This document shows, in pieces, positions 4,856-54,534 of a stretch of 64,000 nucleotides of DNA. A program made the translations under genes and the position numbers. The notes beneath the pieces were generated by a model. The model was given only the letters and a program-made list of their open reading frames with translations. It was not told the DNA's origin and did not search any database. Every line of letters starts with the position of its first letter. Position 1 is the first letter of the stretch. This stretch comes from Candidatus Saccharimonadota bacterium (GTDB lineage: Bacteria > Patescibacteriota > Saccharimonadia > CAILAD01 > BJGX01): assembly GCA_046350735.1 (NCBI GenBank), contig JAXLZU010000001.1, forward strand, positions 307,950-371,949. Reading direction: 5' to 3'.

Positions 4856-7800
4856 ATGGCAGACGCTATTAAAGTAGGTGAGAATGAAATAATTAACAAA
4901 GCTCGGTCTGAGAAGGGGTTTGTTGATTTTGTGCATTTACACACCCATACTCATTACAGCTTGCTCGATGGCTTACAAAAAGTACCAGACTTGGTTAATC
5001 ATATAGAAAGTCTTGGTCAGAATGCCTGTGCTATTACCGACCATGGTACGCTTTCTGGCGCAATTGAGTTTTATAAAGCCTGCAAAGAGAAGGGTATTAA
5101 ACCAATAATAGGTATCGAAACCTACGTTGCCCCTCGTACTCATTTAGACAAAAACAGTGCAGAAGATAGAACACCATTTCACCTTACGCTCTTAGCTGAG
5201 AATATGCAGGGCTATAAAAATCTAATGAAGCTAAGTACGATAGCCAATCTAGAAGGGTTTTATTACAAGCCCCGCATAGACCACGATCTGCTCGAGAAGT
5301 ATAAAGAAGGGCTTATTGTACTCTCTGGTTGTGCAGGTGGTGAGCTAGGCAGTAAGATACTCGATAATAATTATGCCGAAGCAAAAAAAACTGCCGAGTG
5401 GTACAAGCGTGTTTTTGGTAAAGAAAATTATTTCTTAGAGCTACAACCCCACACCGAAGAATTTCAACAAAAAGTTAATACTGGCATTAAGAAGATTGCA
5501 AAAGAGCTCGATCTCAAATTGGTAGCTACTGGCGACTCACACTATTCGATATCCGACCAACATTATGCTCACGATATTTTGCTTTGCGTGCAGACGGGCA
5601 GCACAGTGGATGATGTTAAGCGCATGAAACTAGAGATGGATCTTTCGGTAGCACCTGGTAGTCATTTTGCAGAGTTCTTTAAAGACGTGCCAGAAGCAGT
5701 AAGTAATACAGTAACAATTGCCGAGCGTTGCGAGATAGATATAGAGCTAGGGCAAATCTTAATTCCTCGATTCCCCGATGTACCAAAAGGGAAGACCGAA
5801 AAATCACTATTACGAGAAATGGTGTTTGCTGGTGCTGCCAAGCGCTATACTGATTTGCAAGGTGATAACCTTACAGAAGACAAGGTAAAGCCACATTTGC
5901 CGGCAGAGGTATTAGAGCGAATTGAGTTTGAGCTAAAAGTAATTGGCGATATGGGCTATGAGGGTTATATGCTAATTGTGTCAGACCTTATTAATTGGAG
6001 CAAAGACCAAGGTATTGTCTGTGGCCCCGGGCGTGGGTCGGCAGCCGGCAGCATTATTGCTTATGCTACAGCCATTACCGAGCTCGATCCACTAAAGTAC
6101 GATCTTCTATTTGAGCGATTCTTAAATCCCGACCGTATTAGTATGCCAGATATTGATATGGACTACGCCGATGATAGACGAGAAGAAGTAATTAATTATG
6201 CCACTGAAAAATATGGCCAAGAGCGGGTAGCCCAGATAATTACCTTTGGAGTAATGGCTGCCCGTAACGCAGTACGTGATACCGGTCGTGTGCTAGGCTT
6301 ACCGTATGGTGAGGTAGATGCAATTGCTAAAGTAATACCGGCTCCTATTCAGGGTAGGCATGTACCACTAAAAAAATCTATTGTCGACAACCCAGAGCTA
6401 AAGGCAGAGTACACCAATAATCCCAAGGCCAAAGAAGTAATAGATATTGCTATGCAGCTAGAGGGTACTATTCGTAATGCTGGTACTCACGCCGCTGGTG
6501 TCGTAATTGCACCAGAAAATTTAGTAGAATATGTACCGCTTACACGGGCAAGCAAGGGTGGTGTAGCTACTCAGTATTCTATGAACCCTATCGAAGAGCT
6601 AGGTCTACTTAAATTTGATTTTCTTGGCCTTTCTAACCTAACAATTATTAAGAATACACTGCGTATTATTAAGAAGGTGTATGGCAAAGACATCGATGTT
6701 AATGACATTCCTATAGACGATAAAAAGACCTACGAATTATTAAGTAGAGGCGATACCACTGGTGTATTTCAGTTAGAGTCGGCAGGTATGAAGCGCTACA
6801 TTCGAGACCTTAAGCCTGATAGGTTTGAAGATATTATTGCCATGGTGGCATTGTATCGTCCAGGACCAATGCAGTGGATAGAAGACTTTATTAATCGAAA
6901 GCACAACCCTGGCCTTATTACGTATGGTCACCCTAAGATGCAAGATGCTCTAGAGAATACTTATGGCATTATTGTGTATCAAGAACAAGTAATGCAAATT
7001 GCCAAAGATCTTAGTGGCTTTACGGGTGGCCAGGCCGATACGTTACGCAAAGGTATTGGTAAGAAAATTCCCGAAGTAATTGCTAAGATGAAGCAAGAAT
7101 TTGTCGAAGGTGCTATTAAGACCAGCAAGGTAGATGAAAAATTTATTAACGATCTCTGGAAGAGTATCGAAGACTTTGCGGCTTATTGTTTTAACAAAAG
7201 TCATGCTGCGTGTTATGCACTTATTAGTGTGCAGACAGCATACTTAAAGGCGCACTATCCATCAGCATTTATGGCCGCCCTGCTTACCTCAGACCATGAA
7301 AACTTAGACCGTATAGCGATAGAAGTAACAGAGTGTCGTAAGATGGGTATAGAACTATTGCCACCCGACATTAACGAAAGTTTTGCCGAGTTCGCTGTAG
7401 TACCAGAGACTGGCAATATTCGCTTTGGCTTAGGAGCAATAAAAAATGTCGGCTCGGCACCCATTGAGATAATTCTAGAAGCTCGCAAAGAGGGTGGTAA
7501 GTTTCAGAATCTCGAAGATTTTTGCAAGCGTGTAGATGCTAGTGCTATCAACAAAAAAGTAATGGAGTCACTTATAAAGTGTGGTGCCTTTGATGGTATG
7601 GGAGATAGAGATACCTTACTCGAAAGTGTGGAGGTTATTACTGGCTATGCCTCTAGATTGCAAAAAAATGCTCTCAGTGGGCAAATAGATATTTTTGGCT
7701 CAATGGGTAAGCCCGAAGAAACTCCGCCACTCCGCCTCGTACCGCCAAGTGGTAAGGTAGACCCCCGCACACATTTAATGTGGGAGAAAGAACTTATGGG

Positions 7801-34848: not shown

Positions 34849-34917
34849 GGGGACGAAGTTCTTGTGGAAGAACACCTGCCCATCGGCAGGAGGTGTGGTT
34901 CGACTCCACCGTCTCCA
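34849..34917 (+). ncRNA. tRNA-like element inside the large ncRNA (7-bp acceptor, 4-bp D-stem, hairpin with 6-nt loop in place of anticodon arm, tmRNA/tRNA-type T-loop GGTTCGACTCC)
   Basis: GGGGACG...CGTCTCC-A acceptor pairing; GTTC/GAAC D-stem; CCTGC/GCAGG stem with 6-nt loop; the 3' half GTGGTTCGACTCCACCGTCTCCA closely resembles the 3' end of Bacillus-type tmRNA; no encoded CCA. Confidence 0.5.
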
Positions 34918-35237
34918 CTGGTAGTACAATCTCGACGGCGGGCCCTTCCTGTCACCGGCGGAAAGATTGTGCTCCATCCCGGCTTCGGGTCGGGTTGCAC
35001 TAAGGTGTGATGTTCGCTACTAGCGCCTTACGTGTAACTCGGCTCGTCGCCGGACCACCCCCTTGCCTCAATACTAATGTATTGGGGCTTTTCTTATGCA
35101 AACAGGTTGAGTTAAACAAGGTATTATGATATATTTATAAGTATGAATACAGTTAAAACAGCTTGGTTTTATTTTACAAACTCTGTGTCTCGCCGAGGTG
35201 TTTTGCGTTAAAGTCTAAATAGTATGTAATTAATTGT

Positions 35238-46761: not shown

Positions 46762-47187
46762 ATGCCAACAATCAACCAACTAATTCGCAAACCACGTGTT
46801 CGTAAAGTAAAGAAAACCAAGGCTCCAGCCCTGGGGAAGAGCTTTAACGCACTTAAAGTCCGCTCTACTAGCATGAACTCACCACTAAAACGTGGGGTTT
46901 GTACAAAAGTGTTTACCCAAACACCTAAGAAGCCAAACTCGGCGCTTCGTAAGGTTGCCCGTGTACGCCTTACAAACGGTATGGAAGTAACTGCCTATAT
47001 TGGTGGTGAAGGTCACAACCTGCAAGAACACTCTGTTGTGCTGATTCGTGGTGGCCGTGTAAAAGACTTACCTGGTGTGCGTTATCACGTGGTACGTGGT
47101 GCGCTCGACACCGGTGGGGTATCAGATCGCAAACAAGGTCGTAGCAAATATGGTACCAAGCTAGAAAAGGGCGGAAAGAGCGAATAA
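46762..47187 (+). CDS. rpsL: 30S ribosomal protein S12
   Basis: [12 protein letters not shown]...KKPNSALRK; 141 aa. Confidence 0.97.
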
Positions 47188-47663
47188 TGCCAAGAAAAAC
47201 TACCAAATCTCTCAAACGAGTTATTCCAGCAGATACTAAGTATCAGAATGTTTTGGTGCAAAAAACCATCAATAAGGTAATGAAAGACGGCAAAAAACGT
47301 CTTGCCGAGAACTTGGTTTATTCTGCAATAGAATCTGCTGCTGCCAAGAGCAAGAAAGAACCTGTAGAAATTCTCGAGCTAGCGGTAAAGAATGTTAGCC
47401 CAGCGGTAATGGTAAAGAGCAAGCGTATTGGCGGTGCTAACTATCAGGTACCTATGGAAGTTAGAGGCGATAGAAAAACCCACTATGCACTTACCTGGAT
47501 ATTGGATAGTGCTCGTAACAAGTCTGGTAAGAGTTTCGACAAAAAACTCTCTGCCGAGCTATTAGCTGCAGCCAATAACGAAGGTGATGCCATTAAGAAA
47601 AAACAGGATGCTCACCAAATGGCCGAGGCTAACAAGGCCTTTGCTCACTTTGCCAGATACTAA
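47187..47663 (+). CDS. rpsG: 30S ribosomal protein S7
   Basis: 158 aa with the typical S7 core; start overlaps the rpsL stop. Confidence 0.95.
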   Translation: MPRKTTKSLKRVIPADTKYQNVLVQKTINKVMKDGKKRLAENLVYSAIESAAAKSKKEPVEILELAVKNVSPAVMVKSKRIGGANYQVPMEVRGDRKTHYALTWILDSARNKSGKSFDKKLSAELLAAANNEGDAIKKKQDAHQMAEANKAFAHFARY

Positions 47664-47678
47664 GCAAATATCAAAAAA

Positions 47679-47701
47679 CCACCTGAAAATGGTGGTTTTT
47701 T
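47679..47701 (+). terminator. rho-independent terminator after rpsG (CCACC-TGAAAAT-GGTGG + T6)
   Basis: Hairpin followed by TTTTTT immediately after the rpsG stop; in most bacteria fusA follows rpsG without a break. Confidence 0.7.
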
Positions 47702-47718
47702 GATATATAAAAACCCAA

Positions 47719-48108
47719 TCATTGCCGATTGGGTATATTTGCACGTTGATTCTTGACTCTCTGATAAATCTTTATCCCGGGCCAGCTTAGTAGCCAGATA
47801 GTAAAGATTGGCCAGCAAAGAATTGCTAAAACTATTTTTGGCTGAGTATCTACCTGGATCTTGCTCCAGCCTCGAAACCCATAGCAATACTTCTGAGAAA
47901 TCCTTTTTGATAGTGAGAAGGTATTGTTAAGCCAGGCTGGCGTTCCACTGAATAGTACGATTAGTACACGTATGGTAAAGTCGGGATTAACAGATATAAC
48001 CAGAATTAATGTAAAGAAGAAGAGGTAGCAAATATAGGCTTTTACTACAGCAAAGGCAAACTCACCATATGGCGCATTTCTCCTGCTAACGAGCTCTTCT
48101 GTCTCCAT
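47719..48108 (-). CDS. hypothetical membrane protein
   Basis: 129 aa with 3 TM helices; minus-strand terminator hairpin CCCAATC..GATTGGG at 47711-47738. Confidence 0.45.
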   Translation of the reverse strand: METEELVSRRNAPYGEFAFAVVKAYICYLFFFTLILVISVNPDFTIRVLIVLFSGTPAWLNNTFSLSKRISQKYCYGFRGWSKIQVDTQPKIVLAILCWPIFTIWLLSWPGIKIYQRVKNQRANIPNRQ

Positions 48109-48186
48109 GTCGCTCCATGGCCTAGAGGTTCAAAGCTAGAATATAATACCACAAATTATTAATTATTACAATAAAAAACCCAAACT

Positions 48187-48591
48187 CTAAAGTTCGGGTA
48201 GTGCAGCTAAAAGTGCTGCATACATCTCATCGATGATTTTCTGTAGCTCATCGATTTCAAACATCTGACATTCTTCAGAAAACTGGCTATATACAGCGAT
48301 GTACTTTTCTCTTAACTCGTAACTGTCAATCTCACCAAATCGATTTTGTTCGAAAGCATGCTTGAAGGCTTCCTCTGCTTCTTTCAATATTCTCTGCTTG
48401 AGCGTTGCTTTGTATTTGAGTAATTCAATCTTATTGGCAGAATTTTCTTCTAATTCATGGAGATATTTTGCTTGGTAGCTTCTTTTTTGTAGCAGAGCTA
48501 CGACTATATTGGTAATAACTTCAAGAACCTTTGTAATACTGAGAAAGATAACAAGAGCAAAGATGACATTGATTTCATCGGCTGTTGTCAC
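48187..48591 (-). CDS. hypothetical protein with N-terminal TM helix
   Basis: 134-aa ORF. Confidence 0.45.
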   Translation of the reverse strand: MTTADEINVIFALVIFLSITKVLEVITNIVVALLQKRSYQAKYLHELEENSANKIELLKYKATLKQRILKEAEEAFKHAFEQNRFGEIDSYELREKYIAVYSQFSEECQMFEIDELQKIIDEMYAALLAALPEL

Positions 48592-48666
48592 CCGTAACCA
48601 CCTCCTGGTACAAGACTACGATATATTATCATAATATTAGTATTTAGTAAATAAAAAACCCAATCA

Positions 48667-49212
48667 TTACTGATTGGGAAGTATTTTGGCCAGAACTTGG
48701 CTGAGACGTGGTTCGGCCAGGCCGGTGCCATAGTTCCACATTAACCCTTTATAGTGACGGCGACCATAGCTACCCAGCTCAATGCCGGTGTAGTGTTCTA
48801 CTATATCGGTTTGTTCATACGGAAAGTATTGGTACTTTGTCTTGCAGTAACCCGTAAAGAACCCTAATGCAATATATGCAAGCTCCATAAAACTAGTTGG
48901 TTGATTCGTAATCTCGATAAGCTCGACTTTGTAGAAGTAGGGGAGGTGTAGCTCGTCGTATGCTTCATCTCGAAAACAAGGTGTAGTGCACTGATATCTA
49001 CCCTCAGAGAGCTCATTATTGAGTATTAAGTGCAAAAAACTTTGCTCGCCGCTGGCTGGCAAAAACCCGCCAAGTGTAAAGAATGGAAAAGATCCTTCAG
49101 GAAAAGTTGCTTCGTATGCTTCTCGACAAACCACCCAAGGAACATCAATTTTTTTAAACCCCGCTGCTTCATAATAGGCTTCGGCAGCAGCAATTTTGGT
49201 GTGATCAATCAT
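48667..49212 (-). CDS. minimal class II aminoacyl-tRNA-synthetase-like catalytic-core protein (AspRS/AsnA-type motif 2)
   Basis: 181 aa carrying all three class II motifs in compact form: motif 1-like AGFKKIDVPWVV, motif 2 CFRDE(x9)YFYKVELIEI (compare E. coli AspRS CFRDEDLRADRQPEFTQID), motif 3-like GTGLAEPRL. Confidence 0.5.
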   Translation of the reverse strand: MIDHTKIAAAEAYYEAAGFKKIDVPWVVCREAYEATFPEGSFPFFTLGGFLPASGEQSFLHLILNNELSEGRYQCTTPCFRDEAYDELHLPYFYKVELIEITNQPTSFMELAYIALGFFTGYCKTKYQYFPYEQTDIVEHYTGIELGSYGRRHYKGLMWNYGTGLAEPRLSQVLAKILPNQ

Positions 49213-49472
49213 TTTCTTGCTCCGTTCTGGAATGCGCGAGCAGTGATATTACTCATAACAATCAGGTCATTCAGACTAATCGAAGGATGTTCTTCTTGTA
49301 GATAGAGACGAATGGCACCGATGAGATCACTCAACTCTTGCAGAGCCATCAGACTACATTCTTGTTCGAGTGCATCCTCAAACTCCTCAAGTTCCTCTCG
49401 TATCTTACCGGCGCTCCCTGTAGGTTGTTTTGCAATATCTGCTAGGTGGTAACCTGGTTTTTTTACCGGCAT
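49209..49472 (-). CDS. MazG-like all-alpha NTP pyrophosphohydrolase domain protein
   Basis: 87 aa; IREELEEFEDA...ELSDLIGAI...LNDLIV pattern typical of MazG/EE-x2-E all-alpha NTP-PPase; ATGA overlap with the downstream gene. Confidence 0.45.
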   Translation of the reverse strand: MPVKKPGYHLADIAKQPTGSAGKIREELEEFEDALEQECSLMALQELSDLIGAIRLYLQEEHPSISLNDLIVMSNITARAFQNGARK

Positions 49473-50119
49473 ATTGCCCCTCCTTTGGTCGTAGTAATAA
49501 TTAGCTCATGAACTTGTGCAATCTTTTCTTCGAGTGGAATTATAGAGCTAATACAATGGAAATTATTTCTTAGTTTCCAAACGTCAAAAGTGAGTTGGTT
49601 TACTCGCTTTGCATCCCCCAGGGATTCATATCGGTGCTCATTACCGATTTTGCCAAACAGATCGGGTTTGCCTACTGCGAGAGATTCTAGAAAAATAACT
49701 AGGTTATAACGACGTTGTAGCGTGTTTATAGTTATATCGAATTGGGATGTGAAGCCAGAAGTATTCTCGGGATGATAAGCAGCGATGTCAATCATTCCTC
49801 TGTCGCAGATCATTAAACTTTTTCTTTCAAGTCTAGCTTCTGCAACTGCTAAATCTTCTAGTGCTAACTGTGTATGATAGACTGCACTCTGAAAATGTCG
49901 CATCCAGCTATTAAATTGTTCATTACCAAGAAACCTTTGTGCTGGGGGTGGTGGAAACCCACCACTAAGAATAAGTGTGGCACATTCTGGTACAAAAACT
50001 GCTTCTTCATTCAATCTATCTTTTAATGCATTTACCACGGTAGTTTTACCTGCACATGGACCGCCAGTAATCACTATTTTTTTCATTTGTCTCCTTCGGT
50101 TGTTAAGGTACTTTTCCAC
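49463..50119 (-). CDS. P-loop NTPase / small-molecule kinase-like protein (AAA_28, NadR-RNK-like)
   Basis: Walker A ITGGPCAGKTT immediately at the N-terminus; 218 aa; no second AAA+ features. Confidence 0.5.
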   Translation of the reverse strand: MEKYLNNRRRQMKKIVITGGPCAGKTTVVNALKDRLNEEAVFVPECATLILSGGFPPPPAQRFLGNEQFNSWMRHFQSAVYHTQLALEDLAVAEARLERKSLMICDRGMIDIAAYHPENTSGFTSQFDITINTLQRRYNLVIFLESLAVGKPDLFGKIGNEHRYESLGDAKRVNQLTFDVWKLRNNFHCISSIIPLEEKIAQVHELIITTTKGGAICR

Positions 50120-50225
50120 ATTATATTTACCTCAAAATTTTATCTAGTCTAGAGATTTTTACTCAAAATTATTTAACCAATCAATAAATTGACTCAAATA
50201 ATCTGTGGATATATAGTACTTAGTA

Positions 50226-50894
50226 ATGACACATCACATCCAGAAACAGATTTTAGCCAAACTTATTTCACATCCGTATTTGCGGTTTAGCAGGCTAAAG
50301 CCAAGCAATATTGAGAGTAACCACTTTATGTACCATCTTAAATCTCTTATGCGAGAGGGTTTGGTAGTAAAAAACGACGAGGGTTTGTATTTACTTAGTG
50401 CCGAGGGTAAACAGTTTGCCGATAACTTAAGTCTCGATACATACAAACCTCGCAAACAGCCTAATATTGTCACACTGGTCACTTGTCAGAACGAAAAAGG
50501 GCAATGGCTGGTATACAAACGAGCTCGCCAACCATTAATTAACCAAGTGGGGTTTGTATATGGCAAAGTTCATTTGGGCGAAACAGTCTCAGAAGCTGCT
50601 CATAGAGAGTTAAAAGAAAAGACTGGCTTACAATGCGAGCTTACCCACAAGGGCGATGGCTACATTACTATTTACGAAAGTAATGAGCCTGTAAGTCAGA
50701 TACTGTTTCATATGTTTTATGGAAGAAATCCGTATGGAGAAATTAAGCCAACCAAAAAGCCGGGTACGGCCTCGTGGGCATGGCAAGAAGAATTTGGCCA
50801 CCCGCCTTATATGGCAAGCATGCCAGAGCTAGCCCGACTCGCTAAAGAACCAGGTGAGAGATTCTTTGTAGAACTAACATATAAACCAGGTTAG
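50226..50894 (+). CDS. winged-HTH + NUDIX hydrolase fusion protein
   Basis: N-terminal wHTH-like region; Nudix box GKVHLGETVSEAAHRELKEKTGL (Gx5Ex7REUxEExGU); 222 aa. Confidence 0.6.
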   Translation: MTHHIQKQILAKLISHPYLRFSRLKPSNIESNHFMYHLKSLMREGLVVKNDEGLYLLSAEGKQFADNLSLDTYKPRKQPNIVTLVTCQNEKGQWLVYKRARQPLINQVGFVYGKVHLGETVSEAAHRELKEKTGLQCELTHKGDGYITIYESNEPVSQILFHMFYGRNPYGEIKPTKKPGTASWAWQEEFGHPPYMASMPELARLAKEPGERFFVELTYKPG

Positions 50895-50945
50895 AGATAT
50901 AAAAAATTGGCCTTATCTCTAATAAGGTAAATAAAAACCCCAACC

Positions 50946-51527
50946 TTAGTTGGGGGTAGTGGTGAGTTTTTGGATGACAAATTTGTCTCTGTCTCGATCA
51001 AAAATCTGCTTCATCCGAAATTCGATTTCGGAGAGCAATTTGTCTAGATCAAAACCCATTAGCCTATATTGTGACATGAGAGAATTCAAAATAGGGTAAG
51101 GAATTTCTTGCAAGAAGAAGCAACGATCATACGGAATTCTAACCATATCATTTGGATCATAATCGTCCCAAAATGACCACTCTACATATATTACTTCAGA
51201 ATCAGTATTATTCAATTTATTTGCAGCAATCATGCAAAGTGCATACACCAAATATTGTACACGATTCATGCCCTCAGTGATTTTTTGGTTTAGTTCGTTT
51301 CGCAGGGTTTCTGTACTGAGATCGAGAATCTGATCGTAGGTAAGACCAAGCTTCTCACAGTGCTCTACTACAACTGCAGAACTTTCTGGCTCGGAGAATC
51401 CATCTACTACGGCAATCTCCCAGAAGACACTGGCAATAGATTCTACAGCAAACACCGAATCTGGAAATTCCTTCTTTTTGGCAATTTCGAGTAGTATTGG
51501 GAGGGCTGCAACGAGTTTCTCGTCCAC
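50946..51527 (-). CDS. hypothetical protein
   Basis: 193-aa ORF preceded by a CCCCAAC..GTTGGGG terminator hairpin at 50934-50960. Confidence 0.4.
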   Translation of the reverse strand: MDEKLVAALPILLEIAKKKEFPDSVFAVESIASVFWEIAVVDGFSEPESSAVVVEHCEKLGLTYDQILDLSTETLRNELNQKITEGMNRVQYLVYALCMIAANKLNNTDSEVIYVEWSFWDDYDPNDMVRIPYDRCFFLQEIPYPILNSLMSQYRLMGFDLDKLLSEIEFRMKQIFDRDRDKFVIQKLTTTPN

Positions 51528-51607
51528 TTCTGGGCCTTTCGAGGTACGAATAGGTATGTATAAACATATACTTCATAGGTGTATTTGTCAAGTAAAAAGC
51601 CCCGGTG

Positions 51608-51844
51608 TTAACCAGGGCGAAGAGAATAGAGGGAATACGCTATCATTAACGCTGCAGATGTCCAAAATACAAACAAGACCCCTAGTAGTGCATTTCTATC
51701 GCTTCTGCGTAGATACTTGGCCATCTCAGCCGAGCTTGCGCCTTCGTAATTACTTGGCGATTTACGCCAGCCATAAATAAAGACAAAGCCAAGAGCAATC
51801 AATACAACTGATAGAAAAAGCAAAAAACCTATCCCGATACTCAT
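51608..51844 (-). CDS. small hypothetical membrane protein (2 TM)
   Basis: 78 aa. Confidence 0.4.
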   Translation of the reverse strand: MSIGIGFLLFLSVVLIALGFVFIYGWRKSPSNYEGASSAEMAKYLRRSDRNALLGVLFVFWTSAALMIAYSLYSLRPG

Positions 51845-52275
51845 CGTCGGTGCTTGTTTCGGTATCTGCGTGCACGGGCATTATTGGCTTTCTCTGAAGC
51901 TTCAGATGAGTCGATTACCTTAATTTCTGTTAGTTTGGGTAAAACACATTCCTGCACACAGTTAAAGTGCAAGTGGCAATGCTGCCATCTTTTCGACATT
52001 TGAATACGCCTCATAATGACGTGGTCAGCACCAATCGGAATCTCGAGTTGACAACAGTAACAACGATATGGCTTCTTTGCAAAAGACTGGGCGAGAAAGA
52101 TAGTGATGTAATTACTATCTTTTGCGCGTAATGCCTGTCGCTTATTTGGTAAATCAATAAACTTTTGCAAATCCTCTTCGGATGGTGGACTTGAAAGGCC
52201 CAAGGTATTCACCCCATTTCTCGAAGGTACTGATTTAACAGAAGTTATAATACATATATTTATACATATTGTCAA
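51841..52275 (-). CDS. hypothetical Cys/His-rich protein (start uncertain)
   Basis: YRCYCCQ...HCHLHFNCVQEC motif; the track start is TTG; the true start may be an internal ATG. Confidence 0.3.
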   Translation of the reverse strand: MTICINICIITSVKSVPSRNGVNTLGLSSPPSEEDLQKFIDLPNKRQALRAKDSNYITIFLAQSFAKKPYRCYCCQLEIPIGADHVIMRRIQMSKRWQHCHLHFNCVQECVLPKLTEIKVIDSSEASEKANNARARRYRNKHRR

Positions 52276-52306
52276 TAATATAATGTTATTGATAGTCTGG
52301 TTATTA

Positions 52307-52335
52307 TTGCCACATTTATAACAATCTGCTACAAT
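52307..52335 (+). promoter_or_regulatory. candidate sigma70 promoter for fusA (TTGCCA-17 nt-TACAAT)
   Basis: -35 at 52307-52312, -10 at 52330-52335; ~70 nt upstream of the fusA ATG. Confidence 0.55.
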
Positions 52336-52407
52336 TATTCAGAAATAGCCATTATTTGGCGCTTTTTCATTTTTGCAATAATTATAGAAGGAGAGAATAC
52401 AAACCCC

Positions 52408-54534
52408 ATGGCGCGCGATTATAGCTTAGAAGACACCAGAAATATTGGTATTATTGCCCATATTGATGCTGGTAAAACTACCGTTACCGAAGGTGTACTA
52501 TACCGAACAGGTAAGGTGCATAAAATTGGTGAAGTTCACGAAGGTGAAGCCACCATGGACTGGATGGAACAAGAACGTGAACGTGGCATTACTATTACCT
52601 CTGCTGCTACCACATGTTTCTGGAACAACAAGCGCATTAATATTATTGATACTCCTGGTCATATCGACTTTACTGTAGAAGTAGAGCGCTCTCTTCGTGT
52701 GCTTGATGGTGCGGTTACTGTATTCGACGGCAAAATGGGTGTGGAGCCGCAAAGTGAAACTGTGTGGCGTCAAGCTGATAAATATGGTGTACCACGCATT
52801 TGTTTTATTAACAAAATTAACCAAACCGGTGGTGACTTTTATAAATCGTTAGAATCTATTCACGAACGACTTACTAAGCACGCGTATCCCATTCACTTGC
52901 CAATTGGTTTCGAGCAGCAAATAAATGGTGTAGTAGACCTTATTAGTATGAAGGCATACACCTATAAAGACTACACTGACAAAGAACTTATTGAGGGTGA
53001 AATTCCTGCAGATATGAAAGAAAAGGCTGAAAAATATCGTCAGCACCTAATAGAAGCTGCAGTAGAAGCTGATGATGCAGTTATGGAGAAATATCTAGAA
53101 GGTACCGAGCTAAGTGATGAAGAAATAAAGACCGTTATTCGCAAGTCGGTACTACGTGGAGACTTCTTTATTGTTTCTGGTGGTGATGGCCGTGGTGTAA
53201 TTGTAGAGAAATTACTCGACATTATTACCGACTACCTACCAAACCCACTCGAGGTAACTCCACCGCTTTCTATCGATACCAAGACAGGCGAAGAAAAAGT
53301 ACTAGAAGTGAGCGATGACGCACCTTTTGCTGCGTTGGCCTTTAAGATTGCTACCGATCCATTTGTGGGTAAACTAGCTTTCTTTAGGGTGTATGCAGGT
53401 ACGGTAAAGACTGGTAGCTATGTGCTCAATAGCAGTACTGGCGAAAAAGAACGTATTGGTCGTATTGTACGAATGCATGCCAATAACCGCGAAGAAGTAG
53501 ATGAAGTATATGCTGGCGAAATTGCAGCAGCAGTAGGTCTAAAAGCAACAATTACCGGTAACACCTTGTGTGATCCGGGTGGAAACATTGTTCTTGAGAG
53601 TATTACCTTCCCAGAACCTGTTATTAGTATTGCTATCGAGCCAAAAACTAAGGCCGACCAAGAAAAGATGAGTATAGCACTTGGTCGCTTGGCCGAAGAA
53701 GACCCTACCTTTAGGGTGCACACCGACGAAGATAGTGGCCAAACCATTATTGACGGTATGGGCGAGCTTCATCTCGAGGTGATTGTTGATAGAATGAAGC
53801 GCGAATTTAAAGTAGAAGCTAACGTTGGCCGACCACAGGTAGCCTTTAGAGAAACCATTAAAGGTACCACGCAGATAGAAGGTAAGTTTGTTAGACAATC
53901 TGGCGGACGTGGTCAGTTTGGTCATGTTTGGCTCGAGCTTAGTCCGTTAGTAAAAACCGAAGATGACGAAAAAGGTAAGATCTTTGAGTTTGAAAATGCC
54001 ATTGTTGGTGGTGCGGTACCAAAAGAATACATTAAGCCAGTAGAGCAAGGTATTATTGAGGCTATGAGTAACGGTGTTATTGCTGGTTACCCTGTAGTGG
54101 ATATTCATGCCAAGCTTTACGATGGTAGTTATCACGAGGTAGATAGTAGTGAGGTGGCCTTTAAAATTGCTGCTTCTATGGCCTTGCAAGAAGGTGTCAA
54201 AAAAGCCCAGCCAGTTATTATGGAACCTATTATGAAGGTAGAAATTACTACCCCAGAAGAATCGATGGGTGATGTTATAGGTGATATTAATGCCAAACGT
54301 GGACGAATAGATGAGATGGAAGACCGAAGTGGCGCCAAGGTTATTCGATGTTTTGTTCCACTTGCTGAAATGTTTGGTTATGCCACAAGTCTTCGTAGTC
54401 TTACTCAGGGTCGCGCCAGTTATGCTATGGAGTTTGACCACTACGCCGAAGTGCCTGGTAATGTAGCCGAAGAACTCAAAGGCAAATACACTGCCGCTAG
54501 AGAATCTGGCGACGCCTCGGCTCGCGCTAGCTAA
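52408..54534 (+). CDS. fusA: elongation factor G
   Basis: 708 aa; GTPase motifs [18 protein letters not shown]. Confidence 0.97.

Follow-up and report, generated by a model that had tools for sequence, protein, structure and literature searches.

Gene organization at the locus

The window, i.e., the whole 64 kb stretch of DNA that was analysed, contains a three-gene operon on the minus strand and a fourth, divergently transcribed gene. All four open reading frames and both gene overlaps which a sequence-only reading had described were recovered. The features are:

48659..48678, minus strand: intrinsic terminator hairpin CCCAATCAGTAATGATTGGG, followed by a T-run
48667..49212, minus strand: gene for a mini class II aaRS core, 181 aa
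49209..49472, minus strand: gene for a MazG/HisE-like all-alpha pyrophosphohydrolase, 87 aa
49463..50086, minus strand: gene for an AAA_28 P-loop kinase-like protein, 207 aa from ATG 50086
50120..50225, no strand assigned: divergent control region with TTGAsTCAA boxes and a CTAGTCTAG element
50226..50894, plus strand: gene for a winged-helix (wHTH) plus Nudix-fold protein, 222 aa, divergent from the other three

The operon begins with the kinase gene, which shares 10 nt (49463-49472) with the MazG-like gene. The stop codon of the latter and the start codon of the aaRS gene share 4 nt, ATGA (49209-49212), and the operon ends at the terminator hairpin (48659-48678), which overlaps the aaRS stop codon. 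The kinase frame is open up to GTG 50119, corresponding to the 218 aa assigned previously (49463-50119). This length has to be revised: the start is most likely ATG 50086 behind the Shine-Dalgarno sequence AAGGAG (50092-50097), which yields 207 aa. Kinase orthologues begin with MKKIVITGG.

The control region between the divergent genes carries three TTGAsTCAA boxes at 31 bp spacing, an exact one at 50189, one with a single mismatch at 50158 and one with two mismatches at 50127. The CTAGTCTAG element is located at 50141-50153. The box at 50189 is the sole exact copy within the 64 kb; equivalent boxes are present at four other loci (L004, L008, L011, L018). In a promoter scan, putative -35 hexamers of each of the two divergent promoters coincide in part with the boxes, so the latter are perhaps promoter elements and not operators. 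The intergenic region of the window contains no long inverted repeat, and no riboswitch or ncRNA match at the locus reached the Rfam gathering score. An anti-phage defence system was considered and rejected as PADLOC returned no meaningful matches.

The 181-aa protein is a minimal class II core of SerRS type

Motifs 1, 2 (fRxE) and 3 (GxGxGxxR) of class II aminoacyl-tRNA synthetases are all present in the 181-aa protein. Invariant in the family are the Arg and Glu of motif 2, GTGxAEPR in motif 3, E145 and an S-G-E loop; neither the catalytic residues in motifs 2 and 3 nor the acids that bind metal vary over about 1,500 clusters. The catalytic core spans the entire protein (176-178 residues aligned) and leaves no room for a further domain. 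The initial description as a minimal stand-alone class II core, with genes for an all-alpha NTP-PPase-like protein, an AAA_28 kinase and a wHTH-Nudix protein alongside, stands. That the protein is a fragment or pseudogene of a larger synthetase is excluded by the size of the family, with >1,400 homologues that are each about 180 aa long, and by the invariance of its catalytic motifs. Class II cores of less than 200 aa had been called rare; 1,481 representative clusters (counted at E<=1e-10) and 274 phage records contradict this.

When the mini-aaRS is used in profile searches SerRS ranks first. In HMMER and hhalign comparisons with SerRS the typical signatures align, i.e., the TxE loop, H..F.KVE, IE(L/V)GS and N.T...R. 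The equivalences at the C-terminus are based on a pairwise alignment with the canonical SerRS of one genome (L016); a profile of the C-terminal part alone had no match in the PDB. The residues concerned presumably have the serine-binding roles described in the literature on T. thermophilus SerRS. Judged by these signatures, the amino acid bound and activated is most likely serine. Against this, SerRS-like amino acid:carrier-protein ligases have altered specificity.

Everything which a synthetase uses to recognize tRNA is missing. The mini-aaRS begins about 12 residues ahead of motif 1, without the N-terminal coiled-coil tRNA arm, and possesses no anticodon-binding or other tRNA-binding domain. 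Compared with a bacterial SerRS, which has a catalytic domain of about 300 aa in an enzyme of about 430 aa, the core is reduced to about 180 aa and always comes with a MazG-like partner. Its motif-2 loop is 7-8 residues shorter than that of the canonical SerRS of L016, and genes for canonical SerRS are present beside the mini-aaRS in the same genomes (L016, L019). From these sequence features we infer that the mini-SerRS is not a tRNA charger. The median net charges of the mini-aaRS (-7) and of the MazG-like subunit (-4.5) are acidic, a weak argument against tRNA charging because many bacterial aaRSs are likewise acidic.

The sequence-only reading had placed the protein with AspRS and AsnA, and class IIb was tried as its closest relationship. 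The core is SerRS-like, and this placement was given up. That the locus encodes a small-molecule pathway of four enzymes, with an amidating or ligating enzyme akin to AsnA/AspRS and an active Nudix sanitiser, is very improbable. This reading could invoke FRDE in motif 2 and a weak match to Pfam tRNA-synt_2, yet at 16.2 bits this match remains below the gathering score of 25 and SerRS is found first; further, the Nudix box is degenerate and, of the four genes, only two stay together from locus to locus (see below).

The MazG/HisE-like subunit and its probable relation to Atd1

The 87-aa protein matches phrog_6408 at 5e-34. Invariant in its family are GYH, K23, E26, E27, E30, D33, E46, D49, R79 and R86. 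Most of these form a MazG-type motif, K23-x2-E26-E27-x2-E30-x2-D33 ... E46-x2-D49, i.e., the EExxE...D and ExxD metal-binding motifs of the MazG/HisE superfamily on an all-helical domain. Among 24 family members 17 weakly match PRA-PH (best 4.6e-4) and nine match the HisE model TIGR03188. The protein of the window scores 14.9 bits on PRA-PH at a cut-off of 21.3, and no member of the family reaches a Pfam gathering score. A PDB profile search with the small protein returned nothing significant, and hhalign comparisons with E. coli MazG and HisIE were not significant either. The MazG-type assignment proposed earlier is therefore retained on account of the invariant motif and the PRA-PH and HisE matches, at a level which Pfam thresholds do not endorse.

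A truncated SerRS next to a gene for a small helical protein brings to mind the Bll0957 family of amino acid:carrier-protein ligases. The known enzymes are truncated SerRS homologues which do not charge tRNA and are encoded beside genes for carrier proteins of about 80 aa. They differ in having a methanogen-type SerRS origin, a length of about 300 aa and a phosphopantetheinylated carrier as partner. That the 87-aa protein is such a carrier is hardly credible. Its ELSDL sequence could be read as a carrier motif, yet several members (L002, L003, L019, L026) have Ala or Thr in place of Ser48, and on this ground a carrier-protein partner was rejected. In addition, E46, D49 and EExxE..D are invariant and match MazG/HisE, and the mini-aaRS is nearer to bacterial SerRS than to Bll0957.

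A biochemical clue comes from phages. The 87-aa protein shares 51% identity with QQG33500.1 of phage PcCB7V, which sits two genes from an RlaP NTase and within the span of roughly +/-4 genes around NTases used for the Atd1 library. In that screen about 8 flanking ORFs of <200 aa were taken per NTase; according to the preprint, Atd1 hydrolyses ppGpp (Km about 50 uM), though not rNTPs or c-di-GMP, is active alone without an aaRS partner, and protected against TIR-STING and retron-TIR (Ho et al., 10.1101/2022.06.09.495361). The text searched makes no mention of an aaRS-like neighbour (Ho et al., 10.1101/2022.06.09.495361). Being the MazG/HisE-like ORF two genes from the NTase of PcCB7V, QQG33500.1 is probably Atd1 itself; the identity is indirect because PcCB7V carries a true MazG-domain gene elsewhere (QQG33552.1) and the preprint lists no accession. 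Unlike the phage gene Atd1, the gene of the window is chromosomal in a bacterium and in an operon with a kinase.

The two genes form an obligate pair

Among 33 loci from cells and phages, 29 have the MazG-like gene directly beside the mini-aaRS gene. In viral loci the two genes are neighbours on the same strand in all 80 cases, within 200 bp in 59 of them, and both gene orders occur. The pair is adjacent in about 260 sequenced phages, where the annotations read 'histidyl/seryl tRNA synthetase' and 'hypothetical'. DPANN archaea and several CPR bacteria encode both proteins as a single polypeptide; these natural fusions are 259-283 aa long (P0041, P0053, P0057, P0078, P0089, P0108, L019, L020). 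A model of the fusion has a pLDDT of 93.3 with a MazG-like domain of three long helices, and a pTM of 0.77 at which the domain orientation is uncertain. The pair is common to large phages, CPR bacteria and DPANN archaea, and its phages fall into many unrelated lineages. The other two genes are restricted: apart from Saccharibacteria, only two lineages have a kinase near the pair, and the wHTH-Nudix gene is confined to Saccharibacteria-like genomes. Thus, the aaRS and MazG-like genes are the universal unit, and the AAA_28 kinase and the wHTH-Nudix protein are lineage-specific additions. The neighbourhoods of homologues, the examination of which had been recommended, show a constant MazG-like partner and replace the original picture of four equal partners.

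Stoichiometric pairing and fusion would also be consistent with a regulatory subunit. By analogy with HisZ and HisG, the mini-SerRS might sense serine plus ATP, or Ser-AMP, and gate the pyrophosphohydrolase without any transfer, and the best profile matches of its partner are indeed to HisE. We consider this improbable. Catalytically dead paralogues such as HisZ let motif 2, motif 3 and metal-binding residues drift; in the mini-aaRS, different from the HisZ-HisG/HisE system, they are retained throughout the clusters. HisZ identity proper was rejected for want of a HisG association: no HisG-like cluster was seen in a survey of the recurrent neighbours in the 33 cellular/phage and 80 viral loci.

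In phages the pair is surrounded by genes for RNA ligase, RlaP, CCA-adding enzyme, Pth, NADAR, NadV, NadM-Nudix and ARH. Its neighbours in cells are AAA_28, AAA_28-CYTH, NrdR, radical SAM proteins, wHTH regulators and a CYTH-like domain fused to PRK (EXEXK motif identified by eye, no Pfam match). NrdR and ribonucleotide reductase genes are near the pair in several loci, and radical SAM genes adjoin it in DPANN and CPR loci. The earlier view of a nucleotide-centred cluster which is linked to conflict systems and does not belong to housekeeping is supported.

The RNA-repair genes among the phage neighbours (CCA-adding enzyme, Pth, RlaP, RNA ligases) would suit a rescue of tRNA 3'-ends. The MazG-like subunit would strip the 3'-pyrophosphate which toxic small alarmone synthetases (toxSAS: CapRel, FaRel2, PhRel) add to the CCA end of tRNA, and the class II core would keep hold of this end for re-acylation or protection. 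The usual site of action of a class II core is the 3'-OH of A76, toxSAS function in antiphage defence, and the (p)ppGpp hydrolases SAH and MESH1 reverse tRNA CCA pyrophosphorylation. Such a role would account for the need to have a pyrophosphatase together with, or fused to, an aaRS core, and it agrees with the reported hydrolysis of ppGpp, not rNTPs, by the probable homologue Atd1 (Ho et al., 10.1101/2022.06.09.495361). Nevertheless it is unlikely. The tRNA-binding arm is missing, the motif-2 loop is short and both subunits are acidic; serylating tRNAs indiscriminately would be harmful, and regulated chromosomal CPR/DPANN operons with kinases are left unexplained.

The kinase-like protein

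The assignment of the first gene of the operon as an AAA_28-type P-loop kinase is confirmed (69.2 bits at a cut-off of 27, 6.5e-19; Walker A GGPCAGKTT). Identity as a NadR ribosylnicotinamide kinase was discarded: there is no equivalog-level match (TIGR01526, E 0.043, residues 8-48 only) and no NMNAT domain. A PDB phmmer search with the kinase had no NadR among its matches. The protein weakly resembles thymidylate kinases. Its link to the pair may be loose because no phage homologues were found, the gene is missing from some Saccharibacteria (L011), and in the neighbourhoods of its homologues the family occurs with CYTH or solitary, without the aaRS pair.

An NTP-PPase, an amino-acid-activating ligase and an NMP- or nucleoside-kinase-like protein in one coupled operon could point to a modification of nucleotides prior to assembly, following the logic of MazZ-PurZ or puromycin. 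In Z-genome phages, MazZ-PurZ combines a MazG-type pyrophosphatase and an amino-acid-ligating enzyme on one nucleotide pool, yet PurZ is an adenylosuccinate-synthetase homologue whereas the partner here is an aaRS core. A (d)NTP would be cleaved to the (d)NMP, an amino acid added and the product re-phosphorylated by the kinase. As uses of such a product, incorporation or a function as metabolite or inhibitor come to mind. The faint likeness to thymidylate kinases, the NrdR/ribonucleotide reductase genes and the adjacent radical SAM genes would fit. We regard this as rather improbable: the probable homologue does not hydrolyse rNTPs according to the preprint (Ho et al., 10.1101/2022.06.09.495361), the kinase is absent from phages, and the phages with the pair are of many unrelated lineages. 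To our knowledge, no DNA modification is common to them.

The wHTH-Nudix protein

The fourth protein has a Nudix domain (PF00293, 45.6 bits at a cut-off of 21.1, 9e-12). The N-terminal winged helix, postulated earlier together with the Nudix domain, is indicated by several weak matches only (HTH_45 0.011, DUF7347 0.005, PADLOC WH_III-A 0.0016). The Nudix box GKVHLGETVSEAAHRELKEKTGL departs from an intact GX5EX7REUXEEXGU in that RELKEK is in place of REUXEE; all six orthologues have Lys instead of the last Glu (RE.xEK conserved). Best matches of the domain are MutT, MTH1 and NUDT18, and ADPR pyrophosphatases are more distant from it than MutT/MTH1. No phage homologues of the gene were found.

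The degenerate box makes a ligand-sensing regulator more likely than the Nudix 'sanitiser' originally envisaged, and divergent transcription across the conserved promoter/box region fits this. Probably the protein is a nucleotide-sensing transcription regulator. It resembles NrtR in combining a winged helix and a Nudix fold whose box is impaired, and in being encoded beside presumed target genes. As had been seen correctly, the order of the domains is opposite: the wHTH precedes Nudix, whereas NrtR has an N-terminal Nudix domain, a C-terminal wHTH and an ADPR-type ligand. Membership in NrtR was dismissed on the basis of the reversed order and the MutT/MTH1-like Nudix domain.

Kinase and regulator together could suggest that the pair takes part in a salvage or regeneration of NAD+ or ADP-ribose after NADase attack, with a NadR-family kinase and an NrtR-like Nudix regulator. 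The AAA_28 family includes NadR and Ttd14, a Nudix plus wHTH regulator is present, NADAR, NadV, NadM-Nudix and ADP-ribosylglycohydrolase are among the phage neighbours, and Atd1 is reported to protect against TIR NADases (Ho et al., 10.1101/2022.06.09.495361). This is quite improbable, considering that the NadR kinase equivalog is matched at the N-terminus only, that the Nudix domain is less close to ADPR pyrophosphatases than to MutT/MTH1 and follows the wHTH, and that a serine-activating core has no plausible chemistry toward NAD. The phage islands concerned are general counter-defence regions.

A proposed two-subunit enzyme

Tentatively, we favour an enzyme of two subunits in which an amino acid, probably serine, is activated and the target is a pyrophosphate-bearing nucleotide, not tRNA. 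Subunit A, the pared-down SerRS catalytic domain, would bind ATP and an α-amino acid and form the aminoacyl-adenylate; with all tRNA-recognition parts lost the acceptor presumably is not a tRNA. Subunit B would be a minimal metal-dependent pyrophosphohydrolase of MazG/HisE type, probably of the Atd1 family. The data on its probable homologue suggest an alarmone-type, ribose-pyrophosphorylated nucleotide (ppGpp) as its substrate. The 64 kb, too short a stretch to speak for the whole genome, contain no RelA/SpoT homologue. Both active sites would act on one small nucleotide. Subunit B may bind or hydrolyse (p)ppGpp/(p)ppApp-like or other pyrophosphate-bearing nucleotides, and the adenylate of subunit A may acylate or adenylylate the same nucleotide, or sensing of serine and ATP may gate subunit B. 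As a result, nucleotides generated by stress or defence would be cleared or recycled. In phages this could serve counter-defence or host takeover within an RNA-repair/NAD-ADPr island. In the Saccharibacterium, co-transcription and translational coupling tie the pair to the kinase, which may re-phosphorylate the product, and the divergent wHTH-Nudix protein may switch the operon, its degenerate Nudix domain sensing a nucleoside di- or triphosphate-type ligand.

In a wider formulation a SerRS core of almost 'urzyme' size and a MazG-type subunit would acylate, adenylylate or repair a pyrophosphorylated nucleotide or an RNA 3' end. The pair would then be an enzyme of a kind not recognized before, its natural SerRS core being released from translation. 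This is possible and still doubtful. Candidate targets would be (p)ppGpp/(p)ppApp or toxSAS-modified tRNA.

Implications

The aaRS-paralogue system is new. We found no literature on the aaRS-MazG pair, and surveys of jumbo phages and of NAD-ADPr mention MazG genes without an aaRS partner. If our reading is correct, a further class II aaRS paralogue with a non-translational job joins AsnA, HisZ, EpmA and the amino acid:carrier-protein ligases. It would be the smallest natural one and would bear on ideas about a minimal aaRS core. Atd1 would gain a partner and a far wider phylogenetic setting; the physiological counterpart was perhaps missing when it was studied. In host-dependent CPR and DPANN organisms the module is chromosomal and regulated, which suggests a nucleotide-processing activity useful to parasitic cells and phages alike. 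If acylation or repair is indeed the reaction, it would constitute a new mechanism of alarmone control and anti-defence in large phages, CPR bacteria and DPANN archaea.

Locus and operon structure

The source genome belongs to Candidatus Saccharibacteria (TM7), and the 181-aa class II aminoacyl-tRNA-synthetase-like protein (mini-aaRS) is 100% identical to NCBI U0516_01905, a hypothetical protein. Its gene belongs to a four-gene locus which interrupts the str operon (46762-54534), as a rule contiguous. The features are:

46762-47663, plus strand: rpsL-rpsG, one flank of the four-gene locus
48667-49212, minus strand: mini-aaRS
48678-48659, minus strand: hairpin with T-run, overlapping the aaRS stop codon
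49209-49472, minus strand: 87-aa MazG-like protein
from ATG 50086, minus strand: kinase
106-bp divergent intergenic region: three TTGAsTCAA boxes with 31-bp spacing, the exact box at 50189
106-bp divergent intergenic region: CTAGTCTAG element
50226-50894, plus strand: wHTH-Nudix protein
52408-54534, plus strand: fusA, the other flank

The four ORFs and both overlaps, first claimed from the sequence alone, are confirmed. The kinase, MazG-like and aaRS genes are a single operon with overlaps of 10 nt (kinase/MazG-like) and 4 nt (MazG-like/aaRS). An AAGGAG Shine-Dalgarno sequence lies 5 nt upstream of the kinase ATG at 50086, and kinase orthologues begin with MKKIVITGG in agreement with this start; GTG 50119 is probably unused. 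The four-gene arrangement beside rpsG is kept in Saccharibacteria in which the mini-aaRS is only 47-73% identical. The arrangement is ancient in this lineage and has been maintained.

The gap between rpsL-rpsG and fusA measures 4.7 kb (47719-52275), with genes mostly on the opposite strand, and also holds small membrane-like ORFs of 129, 134, 193, 78 and 144 aa. Other Saccharibacteria have an insertion at the identical point beside rpsG. Elsewhere in the window ARAGORN reports a tRNA-like gene (34849-34918) with an anticodon given as two bases ('at').

The mini-aaRS

A 90%-clustered database contains over 1,484 homologues with lengths of about 175-200 aa. An HMMER scan of 1.84 billion representatives returned 1,481 clusters at E<=1e-10 and only 1,647 at E<=1e-3. 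By these counts the family is large and separated by a sharp gap from canonical synthetases, which rules out that the 181-aa protein is a fragment of a full-length aaRS. It matches PHROG 4806 over its full length (1e-35; label 'histidyl tRNA synthetase'). Invariant are P25/W26 in motif 1, C79-F-R81-x-E83 ... F93-x-K95-x-E97 in motif 2, E145-x-G-S148-Y-G150-x-R152, and G162-T163-G-x-A-E-P-R169 in motif 3.

The best 50 Foldseek matches of the AlphaFold2 model (pLDDT 94.4, pTM 0.90) are all class II synthetases (PylRS, PheRS-alpha, SepRS, SerRS; E ~1e-8). In a profile search against PDB sequences SerRS ranks first (6.5e-5), and the S54-G-E56 loop aligns opposite the SerRS T-x-E loop. Hhalign with the canonical SerRS of a Nanoarchaeota locus (L016) equates residues 14-122 with SerRS 192-319, with a deletion of 7-8 residues in the motif-2 loop of the mini-aaRS, and the C-terminal signatures align as well (IELGS/IEVGS, YGTGLAEPR/NNTAIATSR). 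On these alignments, the 181-aa protein is the catalytic core of a SerRS, reduced to a minimum. The AspRS/AsnA affinity assigned by the sequence-only reading gives way to SerRS, and its AsnA-type pathway belongs to the weakest rival explanations of the system.

In structures of Thermus thermophilus SerRS with seryl-adenylate, the KVE glutamate and the threonine preceding motif 3 bind the serine hydroxyl. Their counterparts, E97 and T163, are both invariant in the mini-aaRS, and serine is therefore our best guess for its substrate. Canonical SerRS genes also occur close to mini-aaRS genes: a 431-aa SerRS lies one gene from a mini-SerRS::MazG fusion in the Nanoarchaeota MAG (L016:3798-5093 and L016:5977-6792), another about 5 kb from the fusion gene in a Woesebacteria MAG (L019:11795-12525).

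The MazG/HisE-like partner

The 87-aa protein matches PHROG 6408 (5e-34), a family without assigned function. Its invariant residues, G7-Y-H9, K23, E26, E27, E30, D33, Q37, E46, D49, R79 and R86, contain what by motif is the MazG/HisE pattern K-x2-E-E-x2-E-x2-D ... E-x2-D. PRA-PH is matched by 17 of 24 family members (best 4.6e-4) and MazG by 3, weakly but consistently; 9/24 weakly match HisE NCBIfam models. Searches against PDB sequences, E. coli MazG and E. coli HisIE gave no significant match for the 87-aa protein. The MazG-like part of a natural fusion is modelled by AlphaFold as three long helices. A MazZ-PurZ-like nucleotide-modification route is a rival explanation of the system.

Ser48 of the ELSDL motif was considered as a phosphopantetheine attachment site. 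It is replaced by Ala or Thr in several members, which excludes a carrier role for the 87-aa protein, and a carrier-protein system likewise ranks among the weakest rivals.

An unannotated domain of about 210 aa without a real Pfam match (HFFGLGFIQIKL...HDHRYDF; L031:3965-4762, L014:6579-7214) forms a C-terminal extension of the MazG-like protein in one MAG; in a Saccharibacteria MAG it has a gene of its own behind the pair.

An obligate pair

In sequenced phages the mini-aaRS occurs in 274 records and the MazG-like protein in 258, in the same genera. Carriers are Phapecoctavirus, Justusliebigvirus, Vequintavirinae and Acinetobacter myoviruses, further phiCbK-like Caulobacter/Brevundimonas phages and Vibrio and metagenomic jumbo phages; the two genes adjoin and frequently overlap. 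The partner adjoins the aaRS, in either order, in 29 of the 33 cellular or phage loci having a full aaRS gene. In IMG/VR it is on the same strand in 80/80 loci: within 200 bp in 59 (28 upstream, 28 downstream, 3 fused), within 1 kb in 18 and beyond in 3. A single ORF (259-298 aa, aaRS part N-terminal) encodes both proteins among DPANN archaea (Woesearchaeota, Nanoarchaeota) and in several lineages of CPR bacteria (Woesebacteria, WWE3, Spechtbacterales, one Saccharibacterium); about 9% of the 150 top-scoring representatives are of this length. The model of fusion P0078 reached a pLDDT of 93.3 and a pTM of 0.77. Their obligate co-occurrence, their translational coupling and their repeated fusion speak strongly for a complex of the two proteins, physical as well as functional.

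GTDB contigs with one genome per species place the family in Saccharibacteria, other CPR bacteria and DPANN archaea, and also in Bdellovibrionota/Bacteriovoracaceae, Obscuribacterales and a few other MAGs. Including the large phages, the carriers are mostly organisms which live off another cell. Throughout the neighbourhoods of homologues the aaRS/MazG-like pairing stood, whereas the kinase and wHTH-Nudix genes, initially taken as parts of one four-gene nucleotide module, are lineage-limited.

In DPANN and CPR loci (L017, L019, L021, L024, L033; ~5200-7500 each) the immediate neighbour of the fusion gene codes for a small radical SAM protein (221-256 aa); the DPANN loci among them also carry a divergent wHTH protein of 279-290 aa. 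NrdR is nearby in four loci (L014, L019, L021, L031).

Kinase and wHTH-Nudix protein

The kinase belongs firmly to AAA_28 (6.5e-19), without an equivalog-level match to NadR RNK. An AAA_28 gene flanks the pair also in the Woesearchaeote L017, and MAG L031 has a kinase-CYTH fusion. At locus L018 a PRK/uridine-kinase-family protein takes its place; Pfam reports only the PRK domain, and a CYTH-like EXEXK motif was read by eye in the N-terminal part. The kinase is missing at one Saccharibacteria locus (L011), was not found in sequenced phages and is present in 2/80 viral loci. Elsewhere in CPR, where the aaRS pair is missing, the kinase family has CYTH and a divergently encoded TrmB-type regulator as neighbours. 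AAA_28 and CYTH look like a separate conserved kinase-triphosphatase module. In one such CPR genome (L116:4084-6184) the AAA_28 homologue overlaps the CYTH gene and faces the TrmB-type regulator; AAA_28-CYTH fusions have about 362 aa (P0246, L031).

The wHTH-Nudix gene is restricted to Saccharibacteria-like genomes. Its Nudix part is closer to MutT, MTH1 and NUDT18 than to ADPR pyrophosphatases. In the box G-x5-E-x7-R-E-L-K-E-K-x-G the last catalytic Glu is Lys in 6/6 orthologues, which speaks against the Nudix 'sanitiser' of the sequence-only reading. The box at 50189 is the sole exact TTGAsTCAA copy within 64 kb, and orthologous intergenic regions carry similar boxes. The three boxes of the window fall on -35-like hexamers of the two promoters, and could act as promoter elements, as operators or as both. 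Given the degenerate Nudix box and the divergent boxed intergenic region, we take the protein, by analogy, to be a nucleotide-sensing regulator of the NrtR type, from which it differs by a reversed domain order. Within 50189-50226 its gene has a near-consensus promoter, TTGACT-17-TATAGT, whose end is just 8 nt from the ATG, a sign that the mRNA is leaderless.

Atd1 and the phage context

Pectobacterium phage PcCB7V encodes an 86-aa family member, QQG33500.1, 51% identical to the 87-aa protein and annotated 'phosphoribosyl-ATP pyrophosphatase'. Two genes upstream of it is the RlaP-family nucleotidyltransferase (NTase) QQG33502.1, and three genes further downstream follows the phage mini-aaRS QQG33497.1 ('seryl-tRNA synthetase'). 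Ho et al. (bioRxiv 10.1101/2022.06.09.495361) screened uncharacterised ORFs <200 aa flanking phage NTases, about 8 per NTase. According to the accessible text of this preprint, the anti-TIR-defence protein Atd1 hydrolyses ppGpp (Km ~50 uM), does not hydrolyse rNTPs and c-di-GMP, and protects E. coli against TIR-STING and retron-TIR; an aaRS-like neighbour is not mentioned there. A further gene of PcCB7V encodes a canonical MazG domain (QQG33552.1, PF03819 1.4e-8, L125:21184-21546); no NTase was detected near it. Atd1 is very probably QQG33500.1.

The phage pair is surrounded by RNA-repair and NAD/ADP-ribose genes. Pfam confirmed RNA ligase, RlaP NTase and NADAR; NadV, NadM-Nudix, ADP-ribosylglycohydrolase, a 2H-like and a Pth2-like protein were recognised by motif. 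In PcCB7V a CCA-adding enzyme and a peptidyl-tRNA hydrolase are neighbours. RlaP is reported to append nucleotides to cleaved tRNA ends. NAD/ADPr salvage is among the rival explanations. Surveys of RNA-repair/NAD-ADPr islands mention MazG genes, not the aaRS partnership.

PcCB7V QQG33411.1 (L124:17532-18773) is annotated 'GTP pyrophosphokinase', with only a weak HD_4 match in Pfam; the phage may carry more (p)ppGpp-related functions. In Phapecoctavirus vB_EcoM_ESCO37 (L001:5495-6841) the gene of a 448-aa protein that matches no family overlaps the mini-aaRS gene at its end; the Phapecoctavirus pair comes after a UvrD-type helicase gene and before genes for anaerobic ribonucleotide reductase.

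Proposed function

Judged by its conserved residues, the mini-aaRS has an ATP- and amino-acid-binding SerRS-type active site under strong purifying selection, without a tRNA-recognition apparatus, and in the collected loci the MazG/HisE-type subunit is inseparable from it. Both subunits are acidic (median net charges -7 and -4.5). Together with the short motif-2 loop these features point to a nucleotide acceptor other than tRNA. The mini-aaRS would form an aminoacyl-adenylate, probably seryl-AMP, to be used on a small nucleotide handled by the MazG-like partner. A HisZ-like regulatory role of the mini-aaRS is a rival to such catalysis. Because of the Atd1 data the substrate class would most likely be a pyrophosphate-bearing 'alarmone-type' nucleotide. 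Synthetases transfer AMP from an aminoacyl-adenylate to alarmone-type acceptors, yielding Ap4A and ApppGpp. Kinase and Nudix-type sensor would serve product recycling and operon regulation. As a whole, this model is put forward tentatively.

The most attractive alternative is that the pair repairs tRNAs whose CCA ends have been pyrophosphorylated by defence toxins of the toxSAS type. This reaction is known for ppGpp hydrolases of another fold; for the pair we consider it unlikely.

The superfamilies to which the components belong are known, and one component is probably Atd1, which has been published. No description of the obligate mini-SerRS/MazG pair and its fusions, of its chromosomal occurrence in CPR/DPANN or of its regulated operon form was found in the searchable literature. 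We class the pair as a non-translational class II aaRS paralogue system.
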